Assembly: GCF_003334815.1 (NCBI RefSeq)
Contig: NZ_QOWO01000010.1
Reading direction: 5' to 3' (one strand)
DNA: 64,000 nucleotides
Source of the DNA: Escherichia coli
Lineage (GTDB): Bacteria > Pseudomonadota > Gammaproteobacteria > Enterobacterales > Enterobacteriaceae
How positions within the stretch are numbered: the first letter of the stretch is position 1; the number at the start of each line of letters is the position of its first letter. Position numbers and translations under genes: made by a program. The notes beneath the pieces were generated by a model. The model was not told the DNA's origin, did no database searches, and saw only the letters and a list, made by a program, of their open reading frames with translations. Shown piece after piece: positions 39,507 to 42,506 of the stretch.

Positions 39507-41015
39507 ATGAATAAATCGCTGGTAGCGGTAGGCGTCATTGTTGCGCTAGGCGTAGTCTGGACAGGCGGCGCATGGTATACAGGCAAGAAGATTGAAACCC
39601 ATCTCGAAGACATGGTCGCGCAGGCGAACGCGCAACTCAAACTGACAGCTCCTGAATCCAACCTGGAAGTGAGTTATCAAAACTATCATCGCGGCGTATT
39701 CAGCAGCCAGTTGCAACTGTTGGTGAAACCCATTGCCGGGAAAGAAAATCCGTGGATTAAAAGCGGTCAGAGCGTCATCTTCAACGAATCGGTTGATCAT
39801 GGTCCCTTCCCGCTTGCCCAGCTTAAAAAACTGAACCTGATCCCGTCGATGGCATCAATTCAAACCACGCTGGTTAATAACGAAGTAAGCAAACCACTGT
39901 TTGATATGGCAAAAGGTGAAACGCCTTTTGAGATTAACTCGCGCATTGGTTACAGCGGTGATTCCAGTTCCGATATTTCGCTCAAGCCACTGAATTACGA
40001 GCAAAAGGATGAAAAAGTCGCCTTTAGCGGCGGCGAGTTCCAGTTAAATGCTGACAGAGACGGCAAAGCCATCTCCCTTTCCGGGGAGGCGCAAAGTGGT
40101 CGGATAGACGCAGTTAACGAATACAACCAGAAAGTGCAGTTGACCTTTAATAATCTGAAAACCGACGGTTCCAGCACGCTGGCAAGTTTTGGTGAGCGTG
40201 TAGGAAATCAAAAACTGTCACTGGAAAAAATGACCATTTCAGTGGAAGGCAAAGAACTGGCACTGCTGGAAGGCATGGAGATCAGCGGTAAATCGGATCT
40301 GGTCAATGACGGTAAAACGATCAATAGCCAACTGGATTACTCGCTAAACAGCCTGAAGGTACAGAATCAGGATCTGGGCAGCGGCAAGCTGACTTTAAAA
40401 GTCGGCCAGATTGATGGTGAAGCCTGGCATCAGTTTAGCCAGCAATATAACGCGCAAACTCAGGCGCTGCTGGCACAGCCAGAAATTGCCAACAACCCCG
40501 AACTTTATCAGGAGAAAGTGACGGAAGCCTTCTTTAGCGCCCTGCCGCTGATGCTGAAAGGCGATCCGGTGATTACTATCGCGCCGCTAAGCTGGAAAAA
40601 CAGTCAGGGTGAAAGTGCCCTGAATCTGTCGCTGTTCCTGAAAGATCCGGCAACGACTAAAGAAGCGCCGCAAACGCTGGCGCAGGAAGTAGATCGTTCG
40701 GTTAAATCTCTGGATGCGAAACTGACCATTCCGGTGGATATGGCAACTGAGTTTATGACTCAGGTAGCGAAGCTGGAAGGTTATCAGGAAGATCAAGCGA
40801 AAAAACTGGCGAAACAGCAAGTTGAAGGTGCATCAGCAATGGGGCAGATGTTCCGTCTGACCACCTTGCAGGACAATACCATCACCACCAGCCTGCAATA
40901 TGCTAACGGTCAGATAACGTTAAATGGGCAGAAAATGTCGTTAGAAGATTTTGTTGGCATGTTTGCGATGCCAGCTCTTAACGTTCCGGCTGTACCGGCA
41001 ATTCCGCAGCAGTAA
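39507..41015 (+). CDS. ydgA: DUF945-family periplasmic/membrane-anchored protein
   Basis: 502-aa ORF with an N-terminal signal/anchor sequence; recognised as YdgA. Confidence 0.8.
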   Translation: MNKSLVAVGVIVALGVVWTGGAWYTGKKIETHLEDMVAQANAQLKLTAPESNLEVSYQNYHRGVFSSQLQLLVKPIAGKENPWIKSGQSVIFNESVDHGPFPLAQLKKLNLIPSMASIQTTLVNNEVSKPLFDMAKGETPFEINSRIGYSGDSSSDISLKPLNYEQKDEKVAFSGGEFQLNADRDGKAISLSGEAQSGRIDAVNEYNQKVQLTFNNLKTDGSSTLASFGERVGNQKLSLEKMTISVEGKELALLEGMEISGKSDLVNDGKTINSQLDYSLNSLKVQNQDLGSGKLTLKVGQIDGEAWHQFSQQYNAQTQALLAQPEIANNPELYQEKVTEAFFSALPLMLKGDPVITIAPLSWKNSQGESALNLSLFLKDPATTKEAPQTLAQEVDRSVKSLDAKLTIPVDMATEFMTQVAKLEGYQEDQAKKLAKQQVEGASAMGQMFRLTTLQDNTITTSLQYANGQITLNGQKMSLEDFVGMFAMPALNVPAVPAIPQQ

Positions 41016-41026
41016 TTCACGGCCAA

Positions 41027-41058
41027 AACGCCGGAGAATTTTCACTCCGGCGTTTTCA
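41027..41058 (+). terminator. Rho-independent terminator after ydgA
   Basis: Stem CGCCGGAG/CTCCGGCG followed by TTTTCATC. Confidence 0.6.
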
Positions 41059-41079
41059 TCTGAAAACAAACCAGAGATT

Positions 41080-41177
41080 GCCTGATGCGCTACGCTTATC
41101 AGGCCTACCTTTTCCTGCAACACTTTGAATTTATGAGTTTTTGTAGGCTGGATAAGGCGTTTACGCCGCATCCGGCA
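41080..41177. repeat. Pair of REP (repetitive extragenic palindromic) elements forming a BIME-like unit
   Basis: REP1 at 41080-41108 (GCCTGATGCGCTACGCTTATCAGGCCTAC) and REP2 at 41143-41177 (GTAGGCTGGATAAGGCGTTTACGCCGCATCCGGCA) in inverted orientation. Both resemble E. coli REP consensus sequences. Confidence 0.7.
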
Positions 41178-41207
41178 TAAAAAACGCGCACTTTGTCAAC
41201 AATCTGA

Positions 41208-41242
41208 AACGCCGGAGATTTTTCTCTCCGGCGTTATTTTTT
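41208..41242. terminator. Hairpin plus T-run at the uidC 3' end (bidirectional terminator candidate)
   Basis: Stem CGCCGGAGA/TCTCCGGCG followed by TTATTTTTT. Nearly identical to the hairpin at 41027-41058. Confidence 0.5.
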
Positions 41243-42506
41243 ACTTCAGCATAAAGTCATACTGAATACTCATTTTCACATCCCAGTAATTCAGGCGATC
41301 GCCCAGCGTACTGCCATCGCGCTTTTCCCGCCCTTTATCGGCAGCAAGAAAGAAATTCATCCCTTGTAACGGCCCTTCGCTGACCCGATAGTTCATACCA
41401 CCTAAGATACCCGTGCCTTCAATCCGCACATCTCGTTTACTGGATTCATAGCCGCGAGTCACAATCGGTGCAAATGTCAGCGTAAATTGCGGCGTTAAAC
41501 GATAGTTGACGCCCAATTGCCAGGACTGCATTCCTTCACGGTTACGATCAAGACTTAATGAAAAGGGATAGCCAATGTCGGTATCCACCACGGCACCATT
41601 CATTGCATGGCGCAAATAACCACCACTGCCAAATACACTTCCCCACGGCGCATTCCAGGTCAATTGTCCACTAACCAACGCCGTTTCATTGGGCTGGCTG
41701 GTATTACGACTTAAACCTTCGAGCTGCGCGTAAAAGCCGAGCAACTCCCCTTTCAACGTATAATTCGGGTCGAGCGGTATGCTTTTCTCGAGAATACTTT
41801 GTATCTGATTGGAAACATCTTTCTGTACCGATGCCCCCAGAGAATAGCGACTGGTATCATCATGCCAACTGGCGGCTAAAAAAGAACGTGCGCGATGTTT
41901 ATCGTATTTTCCCGTCTGGCTGTTATACACCCCTTCATCACGAATACCGGTTGTTGAATCAGTCCATAAAAATACTCGTGAACGCCACATTCCCCACAGA
42001 TCAATATTTGGTGTTAAAGCCCAATAACCTAATGCTCCTTCAGAAACTGTCGGTAATGTACGTTGCGAACTGCCAGCCATTAACGGAATACGATAAGGTA
42101 AGCTACCATAACTATAATCCGTCCCGAAGCGACCTAATTTAAGCAGGCTATTTTCACTGGGTTTTATTTTTACTGCCCCCAGGGCAAAGCCAAAACTTTT
42201 ATCACCATCAAGATACCACCGGGTACTCATATCAGCACGAGCACCTAATTTATAAACATAATACGCCCCGCCTTCAACGCCAATAATATTGGAATAATAA
42301 CCACTATTGAAATCGAGCAATCCTCCCTGTACCCATGCGTAAATATCTCTTCCCGCGCCAGCACTGGGCTTATCCGCCCTGCGCAATTCGTTTTTCAGTC
42401 TGATGCGTAGTCCCGCTTCATCGTCAGCCAGTTGCGCCGCATAAGCAGAGGTAAGGCCAGAGGCAGCCGTCAGGCAAATAACGGCCATGGCCACTATTTT
42501 TCTCAT
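41241..42506 (-). CDS. uidC: Outer-membrane beta-barrel porin of the glucuronide utilisation operon
   Basis: 421-aa ORF with a signal peptide and a C-terminal aromatic residue typical of OM beta-barrels. Downstream of uidB. Confidence 0.85.
   Translation of the reverse strand: MRKIVAMAVICLTAASGLTSAYAAQLADDEAGLRIRLKNELRRADKPSAGAGRDIYAWVQGGLLDFNSGYYSNIIGVEGGAYYVYKLGARADMSTRWYLDGDKSFGFALGAVKIKPSENSLLKLGRFGTDYSYGSLPYRIPLMAGSSQRTLPTVSEGALGYWALTPNIDLWGMWRSRVFLWTDSTTGIRDEGVYNSQTGKYDKHRARSFLAASWHDDTSRYSLGASVQKDVSNQIQSILEKSIPLDPNYTLKGELLGFYAQLEGLSRNTSQPNETALVSGQLTWNAPWGSVFGSGGYLRHAMNGAVVDTDIGYPFSLSLDRNREGMQSWQLGVNYRLTPQFTLTFAPIVTRGYESSKRDVRIEGTGILGGMNYRVSEGPLQGMNFFLAADKGREKRDGSTLGDRLNYWDVKMSIQYDFMLK

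Follow-up and report, generated by a model that had tools for sequence, protein, structure and literature searches.

BIME-1 elements of E. coli, also termed RIP or RIB, consist of one Z1 and one inverted Y palindromic unit (PU) with, between them, a long L linker containing an IHF site, and measure ~140–150 bp (Gilson/Bachellier/Hofnung; Boccard and Prentki; Oppenheim). Transcription units carry them at their 3′ ends, one copy per locus, and a given copy is present in some strains and absent from others. REPs more widely are enriched between convergent genes and in mapped bidirectional terminators, with 78 REPs lying within 306 such terminators. In the REPIN/RAYT systems, the mobile unit likewise comprises two inverted REPs and a spacer, is non-autonomous and extragenic, and is presumed to be mobilized in trans by a hairpin-recognizing Y1 HUH transposase (Bertels and Rainey; Nunvar; Ton-Hoang). 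Y1 transposition of the IS200/IS605 type, the usual model for REPs, makes no target duplication. REPs are said in the literature to show neither target duplication nor MITE signatures, and the mechanism of their dissemination has been called unresolved.

Here we describe the gap between ydgA and uidC in a 64-kb stretch of E. coli DNA (the window, by which we mean the whole stretch analyzed), in which a BIME-1 sharing all of the published BIME-1 features above is flanked by two copies of one hairpin. We propose, with a probability of roughly 85%, that this BIME-1 inserted into a single bidirectional ydgA/uidC terminator and duplicated its 28-nt stem-loop, and that duplication of hairpin length is a property of the BIME-1 family.

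The ydgA-uidC gap and its BIME-1

The ORF coordinates place ydgA and uidC in convergent orientation with a gap of 225 bp (41016–41240), as the first-pass annotation of this DNA had stated. Over the 901 bp around the gap, the sequence matches E. coli DH1/K-12 at 100% identity, with the two genes annotated there as ydgA and uidC (b1614 and b1615 in MG1655). The feature table of NC_000913.3 lists no REP features for the ydgA-uidC stretch. The parts of the locus, with the evidence for each, are as follows.

39507–41015, plus strand: ydgA coding sequence (ORF list; DH1 and MG1655 annotation); H1 begins 11 nt past its stop codon
41027–41054, no strand assigned: H1, left stem-loop copy, AACGCCGGAGAATTTTCACTCCGGCGTT (direct repeat with H2, pattern search, RNA fold); missing from the short allele
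41055–41079, plus strand: BIME-1 left arm (paralogue alignment; family terminus consensus)
41080–41108, plus strand: Z1-type PU (REP), GCCTGATGCGCTACGCTTATCAGGCCTAC (exact match, the only one in the window; invariant across paralogues)
41109–41142, no strand assigned: L linker, 34 nt, with an IHF-consensus-like site inside (41118–41130, minus strand)
41143–41177, minus strand: Y-type PU (REP), inverted relative to Z1 (paralogue alignment; head at 41143–41159 with one mismatch)
41178–41207, plus strand: BIME-1 right arm, with the canonical terminus ...GCACTTTGTCAACAATCTGA (exact match, unique in the window; kept across 60 canonical copies)
41208–41235, no strand assigned: H2, right stem-loop copy, AACGCCGGAGATTTTTCTCTCCGGCGTT (direct repeat, pattern search, allele comparison, terminator scan on the plus strand, published transcript-end overlap)
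41236–41244, plus strand: T-tract ATTTTTTAC of the plus-strand terminator (sequence; terminator scan); overlaps the uidC stop codon at 41241–41243
41241–42506, minus strand: uidC coding sequence (ORF list, annotation); 5 nt separate its stop codon from the H2 foot

Judged by its sequence, segment 41055–41207 is a complete BIME-1 of 153 bp. The first-pass annotation had reported two REPs at 41080–41108 and 41143–41177; both REPs hold up, and the pair is a BIME, specifically a BIME-1, its arms as well as its PUs aligning with paralogues. When a 152-bp query (41055–41206) was searched against 5,426 complete E. coli genomes, query positions 6–152 found paralogues at entD-fepA and mog-satP with 83–85% identity, also in genomes that carry no copy at ydgA-uidC. 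Because the paralogues cover positions 6–152, the repeat includes the arms. Such arms, lying beyond the PUs, correspond to the A and B motifs of the BIME-1 literature. In the paralogue alignment, the conserved order is left arm, Z1, a linker of ~34 nt, inverted Y and right arm, the end of which reads ...GCGCACTTTGTCAACAATCTGA.

Feature by feature, the ydgA-uidC copy has the composition of a BIME-1. One Z1 and one Y PU face each other in inverted orientation, and the L linker of ~34 nt between them carries a predicted IHF site, ATTCAAAGTGTTG (41118–41130, minus strand), with one mismatch to the consensus WATCAANNNNTTR. IHF-like sites at no more than one mismatch are present in 90 of 122 BIME-1 linkers, compared with 5.7% of shuffled linkers. 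Both PUs are followed outward by arms; the right arm is canonical, and the left arm is recognizable with a degenerate terminus, which reads TTCATCTGAAAACAAACC where the family consensus is TGAGACTGATGACAAACG (in a second notation, TTCATCTGAAAAC in the ydgA-uidC copy versus TGAGACTGATGAC). The element has the stop codon of ydgA on one side and that of the convergent uidC on the other. Searches of the 64-kb window with the Z1, right-arm and Y patterns returned no further BIME-1. A distinct RNA gene in the gap was considered and rejected: Rfam gave only sub-threshold matches, the best being naRNA4 with 37 bits against a gathering score of 59.5, and this match, on the Y PU, is accounted for by REP similarity.

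Two hairpins, one terminator and the short allele

H1 and H2 form a direct repeat in which 27 of 29 positions are identical, the loop included, with a start-to-start spacing of 181 nt; the two mismatches adjoin the loop. This identity is well above the 80% that the first-pass annotation had set as the cut-off for its two near-identical hairpins flanking the REP pair. The positions it gave for them were right, but the ends were not: the hairpins end at 41054 and 41235, and the ends at 41058 and 41242 take in tail bases. A hairpin pattern search of the 64 kb returned two matches, H1 and H2, with 0 expected from 100 shuffles. Folded as RNA on either strand, each hairpin reaches about −20 to −21 kcal/mol (−21.1 kcal/mol for H1 and −20.2 kcal/mol for H2), with z of about −5 to −6.5. 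H2 has the properties of an intrinsic (Rho-independent) terminator, namely a G+C-rich stem-loop, a T-tract and overlap with a mapped transcript end, and it passes the terminator scan on the plus strand with an 11-bp stem followed by ATTTTTTACT. It is the sole report of that scan in the gap. H1 retains the A-tract upstream, carries TTTTCATCT as its downstream tail, fails the scan with this tail and, despite its stable stem-loop, falls short of an intrinsic terminator.

Each gene has a hairpin near its stop codon, and all four strand readings (4/4) fold stably, as would be the case if two independent terminators, alike by chance or convergence, happened to enclose an unrelated REP pair. We regard this as having almost no probability, given that the hairpins agree at 27/29 positions down to the loop where 0 chance matches are expected, and that an exact 181-bp indel takes out one hairpin together with the BIME-1.

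This indel emerged from a comparison of a 901-bp query around the locus with 5,426 complete E. coli genomes. The allele classes listed for ydgA-uidC are one of 901 bp, one of 720 bp and a single IS200C allele; the last occurs in strain 382634_2f, in which IS200C is inserted in the T-tract of the ydgA-uidC hairpin. The short allele, found in the majority of E. coli genomes, spans 720 bp instead of 901 bp, and the 181 bp by which it is shorter equal both the H1–H2 spacing and the sum of the 153-bp element and one 28-nt hairpin. It consists, in order, of the left flank of H1, a single hairpin identical to H2 and the right flank of H2, without BIME-1. In 3,533 genomes, among them O157:H7, O104:H4 and the B2 strain IHE3034, an 82-nt probe for the empty junction is covered to 80% or more, and every empty allele examined has the H2-type loop. 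The filled allele is present in ~1,745 genomes, with an insert at least 99% identical in 1,744. The whole element is present or absent among E. coli strains as this 181-bp indel.

Since the short allele retains one hairpin, H1 and H2 lie outside BIME-1 and, on the comparison of alleles, are duplicated target DNA, the target being a predicted bidirectional intrinsic terminator of ydgA and uidC that existed beforehand. A past duplication had been one of the origins suggested for the two hairpins, and an allele with one hairpin and no BIME-1 bears it out. A repeat of 9–10 nt nearer the element (ATCTGAAAAC after H1 and ATCTGAAAC before H2) was considered as a short target duplication, left by an insertion between two hairpins that were already there, and rejected, its terminal CTGA belonging to the conserved element termini.

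Tandem terminators occur in bacteria, and the two mismatches between H1 and H2 could mean that the duplication is older than the insertion. The terminator might then have been duplicated in tandem first, for example by replication slippage, with BIME-1 landing between the copies later. However, the alleles listed from the 5,426 genomes include no BIME-free double hairpin. Furthermore, the same arrangement recurs at no fewer than 30 independent loci, with the repeats directly against both element termini, which independent two-step histories would not yield. We consider such a history very improbable, and favor a single insertion that duplicated the hairpin.

Published transcript ends locate the terminator now in use. 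A supplementary table of a 2026 preprint, compiled from bidirectional terminators of an earlier study, lists a ydgA:uidC end overlap at MG1655 1691549–1691583 in log phase, which corresponds to 41204–41238 of the window and hence to H2; the list of transcript-end overlaps has no entry at H1. Given that the overlap falls on H2, the ydgA mRNA would carry H1 and BIME-1 in its 3′ UTR. We infer that uidC transcripts end just beyond H2 and that ydgA transcripts traverse H1 and BIME-1 and end at the T-tract of H2. The insertion would in this way have shifted the working terminator and given ydgA a structured 3′ UTR of ~180 nt.

Repeats beside BIME-1 at other loci

Filled and empty alleles form pairs of the same kind at mog-satP, aspC-gloC and uvrB-yvcK in the E. 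coli pangenome, with a single hairpin in one allele and hairpin, BIME-1 and hairpin in the other. The short alleles at these three loci are ~170–175 bp shorter, and all four sites, ydgA-uidC included, lie between convergent genes (4/4). At mog-satP, the BIME-1 is flanked by a local hairpin, ATCCCCCCAAGCGGGGGGA, on one side and a decayed copy of it (16/19) on the other, 172 nt apart. The K-12 mog-satP hairpin, which is entry 1 of the same table of bidirectional terminators, is an empty site; B2 strains have BIME-1 there.

We extended the comparison by scanning a genome collection for BIME-1 cores, which gave 120 loci in E. albertii, E. whittamii, two genomes labelled E. coli, two Pseudocitrobacter and a few others. 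Copies with both arms recognizable form a canonical set (n = 60, from five species). For each copy, the 45 nt to its left were locally aligned with the 45 nt to its right, the null being mismatched pairs of loci (permutation). The median flank-to-flank score was 10.75 for canonical copies versus 5.0 for mismatched pairs, and 33/60 copies exceeded the 99th percentile of the null. In a set chosen independently of the arms, 36 of 98 single copies did so where about one was expected; these represent 30 of 82 independent loci (Mann-Whitney p = 2e-16). Other REP clusters at the same loci exceeded this percentile in 4/88 cases, compared with 30/109 for BIME-1. The top-scoring of the four clusters is itself a BIME-1 orthologue that the search pattern had missed.

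A locus-specific repeat lies directly against both BIME-1 ends in 32 of the 60 canonical copies and measures 12–32 nt (median 21). In 21 of these 32, the left copy ends 4 nt ahead of CTGATGAC, and in 26 the right copy begins directly after ...AATCTGA, with a gap of 0 nt. The right-hand copy folds at −5 kcal/mol or better in 28/32, and the ends of the repeat mostly coincide with the feet of the stem. Across the canonical set, a hairpin abuts at least one end of the element in 50/60 copies, versus 17–21% at control positions. Upstream of the left copy the sequence is A-rich (mean 4.7 A in 8 nt), and downstream of the right copy it is T-rich (4.6 T in 8 nt); by these contexts, the targets of BIME-1 look like bidirectional intrinsic terminators. 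The gene context is convergent in 48 of 85 classifiable copies, and it is there that the repeat is most frequent (23/48). In tandem gene contexts, no orientation bias of the element was detected (21 versus 13, p = 0.23).

These loci also bear on the other origin suggested in the first-pass annotation, in which the hairpins are part of a composite repeat unit. The symmetrical bracketing of the REP pair, and the potential pairing between the outer hairpin arms on its two sides (inverted repeats I3 and I5), would suit a mobile unit of hairpin, REP, REP and hairpin that moves as a whole. Yet the flanking hairpins have a different sequence at every locus, and the AACGCCGGAGA...TCTCCGGCGTT hairpin of ydgA-uidC is confined to alleles of that locus, being present at none of the 120 scanned loci and nowhere else in the window. 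The empty allele, moreover, keeps exactly one hairpin. A composite mobile unit is extremely improbable on these grounds, and the hairpins are better assigned to the target than to the element.

No more than roughly one-third to one-half of BIME-1 copies have a recognizable duplication, and in the E. coli genome SCPM-O-B-8794 it is present in 0/11. Either decay or a different mode of insertion must account for the copies that lack it. Examples of decay are found among orthologous copies (L011 versus L096, in which one copy of the repeat was lost over time, and L135 versus L127). The duplication is strongest in Pseudocitrobacter, where many repeats are perfect (P. faecalis DSM 27453 is a genome with perfect duplications), and weaker in typical E. 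coli with old copies, which may be why work centered on K-12 would have overlooked the pattern. A proxy for element age showed no significant correlation with repeat quality (rho = −0.13, p = 0.31), with a consensus that is crude and biased toward Pseudocitrobacter.

Between species, copies that share a locus are mutual best matches (92% at aspC-gloC and 97% at entD-fepA). The insertions at these two loci, like that at mog-satP, hence predate the species splits, and some of the empty alleles in E. coli must be secondary precise losses, presumably via the flanking repeats. At ydgA-uidC, too, the insertion is old, and its original junctions are no longer exactly readable: the copy is the most diverged among the BIME-1 copies compared (75–83% to any other), and this divergence, together with the mismatches between H1 and H2 and the degenerate left terminus, shows that the insertion is not fresh. 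The filled allele is tied to a ydgA 3′ haplotype that is 5–6% diverged from strains with the empty allele, whereas on the uidC side filled and empty alleles are identical at up to 326/326 positions, which points to a putative recombination boundary at the hairpin or at BIME-1.

With a phylogenetically broad empty allele and a narrow filled one, insertion within E. coli is mildly favored. Conversely, the filled allele could be ancestral in E. coli, an earlier insertion having made the duplication and the short allele having arisen by precise deletion between the 28-nt repeats. The age and divergence of the K-12 copy would fit such an order of events, as would the filled orthologues of aspC-gloC and mog-satP in other Escherichia species, which make the empty alleles there probable losses; whole-BIME-1 "excisions" are also said to have been reported by Bachellier in 1997. 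We find this direction of change unlikely, though a substantial minority view, as the filled allele is one nearly uniform haplotype and the empty alleles span deep phylogroups, all those examined with the H2-type loop, and as the flanks of the empty alleles, 5–6% off the filled haplotype on the ydgA side, are not those of recent derivatives. Whichever ydgA-uidC allele is ancestral, the duplication is the footprint of an insertion.

Proposed integration and comparison with known systems

The termini of the element are conserved irrespective of the hairpin that they abut. The left terminus reads T-GAGA-CTGATGACAAACGC, with the T in 49/60 copies whatever the target, and the right terminus reads ...TTTGTCA(G/A)CAATCTGA. 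The two ends form an imperfect inverted repeat, TGAGACTGATGACAAA versus TCAGATTGCTGACAAA, with agreement at 13/16 positions (a manual count on the family consensus). Whichever strand is read, the junction takes the same form, in that the hairpin's 3′ foot leads into the 5′ end of the element.

These junctions suggest a scheme in which DNA structure would guide integration to its target. Each 5′ end of the element, which is almost symmetrical (TGAGACTG... on one strand and TCAGATTG... on the other), would be linked to the hairpin's 3′ foot in the same strand, the two cuts would be staggered by the length of the whole palindrome, and gap filling would then copy the stem-loop. A variant with only one nick, at the hairpin foot, would yield the same product if the nick primed the copying of the element and re-entry followed upstream of the stem-loop. 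A candidate enzyme is the REP-associated Y1 transposase (TnpA-REP/RAYT). TnpA-REP cleaves at CT dinucleotides near REP hairpins, at times at a distance. More generally, BIME-1, and possibly elements of the REPIN type as a whole, might use an undescribed, structure-guided integration in which an extruded terminator hairpin would receive their ends at its two feet, with a geometry nearer to that of CRISPR and casposon integration than to that of IS200/IS605, and in which insertion, not selection, would explain the presence of REPs at bidirectional terminators. We put this broader proposal forward tentatively, at somewhat less than even odds.

The duplication against conserved termini is a molecular footprint of the target (intrinsic terminator stem-loops, for the most part bidirectional ones in convergent gaps) and of the joining points (stem feet); it is a clue to the spread of BIME-1 and constrains the mechanism. 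It also suggests, in mechanistic terms, why REPs overlap with bidirectional terminators, and it supplies the direct repeats that permit precise loss of whole BIME-1 elements among strains. If integration is indeed structure-guided, the enrichment of REPs between convergent genes would reflect insertion there and not functional selection.

Already known are BIME-1 itself, its IHF site, its position at 3′ ends and its polymorphism of presence and absence. In the literature examined, which extends to accounts of BIME-1 later than the original papers of the 1990s, there is no description of a target duplication of hairpin length at BIME-1, and neither direct duplication of a target hairpin nor targeting of intrinsic terminators is mentioned. 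The hairpin duplication is seemingly undescribed, and the older literature may have noted it.

Compared with the REPIN/RAYT systems, BIME-1 shares the architecture of the mobile unit and differs in its product. Transposition of the IS200/IS605 type leaves no target duplication, whereas the duplication is 28 nt at ydgA-uidC and 12–32 nt at other loci, set by the structure of the target; such a transposition alone would leave the right-hand copy of the hairpin unexplained. Bacterial MITEs resemble BIME-1 in being small, non-coding elements whose terminal inverted repeats are imperfect and which lie between direct repeats of target DNA. Their duplication, however, is short and of a length fixed by the transposase (5 bp in one example), whereas that of BIME-1 varies by locus between 12 and 32 nt, tracking the size of the target stem-loop.

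Group IIC introns, Tn7 (at glmS) and IS200 insert at intrinsic terminator hairpins or just past them, where gene ends provide a safe site. None of these is known to duplicate the whole hairpin, unlike BIME-1. A product of that form is made by CRISPR Cas1-Cas2 and by casposons, which transfer strands at both borders of the target and leave the insert between two copies of ~28–36 bp that are often palindromic; in E. coli, IHF assists the integration of CRISPR spacers. The likeness to BIME-1 would be an analogy of geometry only, as there are no cas genes and no array, and as it is the repeat that is fixed in BIME-1 and the duplicated sequence is that of whichever terminator was hit.

IS200C at the ydgA/uidC hairpin

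In E. coli 382634_2f, whose ydgA-uidC locus (L004) carries the empty allele with a lone terminator hairpin, an IS200C copy lies within the T-tract, directly 3′ of the hairpin:

L004:630-1375, IS200C insertion in the ydgA-uidC locus, with tnpA at 803-1261

At the left junction GGCGTTTTTT abuts the GTGCAC of the element, and at the right junction the element ends in ATATTTAT, followed by TCTTACTTC; the uninterrupted empty sequence is GGCGTTTTTTCTTACTTC. The ydgA/uidC hairpin has therefore been used independently by a second element, one that carries a Y1 transposase.

Hairpin copies and flanking haplotypes

Over the final 326 nt of ydgA (window 40700-41026), the K-12-type filled allele matches the empty alleles (L001-L004) at 306-310/326 positions, a divergence of 5-6%, whereas on the uidC side identity between filled and empty alleles reaches 326/326 (strain 97-3250). 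This asymmetry suggests that a recombination boundary lies at the hairpin or BIME-1, or that the ydgA 3′ haplotype was imported.

At uvrB-yvcK, the left hairpin copy beside BIME-1 has been almost entirely lost in E. coli XH987 (L135:330-350; GCGAAGAAGACTGATGAC) and is retained in the orthologous locus of strain E69 (L127). The pair exemplifies the decay or deletion of one hairpin duplicate.

The left terminus of BIME-1 in the window (41055-41066) is degenerate, reading TTCATCTG where the family consensus has TGAGACTG, and as a result the tail of H1, the left hairpin copy, is richer in U (UUUUCAUCU). This could reflect random decay, or selection restoring some termination at H1.

Further observations on BIME-1 copies

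The Rfam family naRNA4 (RF02564) matches the Y palindromic unit of BIME-1 below threshold (window 41146-41187; 37 bits, gathering score 59.5). We attribute this match to general REP similarity and rejected a distinct RNA gene here.

An exact enterobacterial BIME-1 core is also present in a 262-bp contig assigned to the Firmicute Desulfosporosinus sp. OT (NZ_AGAF01000060.1), most likely through assembly contamination.

In E. albertii NBRC 107761 (L014:6900-7600), three BIME-1-like units form a tandem series, and between them recurs a segment of ~17 nt (GCGTCTGTTAAGGCGTT and variants) similar to the outer flank. Units and repeated spacers thus alternate at this locus, whereas BIME-1 is usually single-copy.
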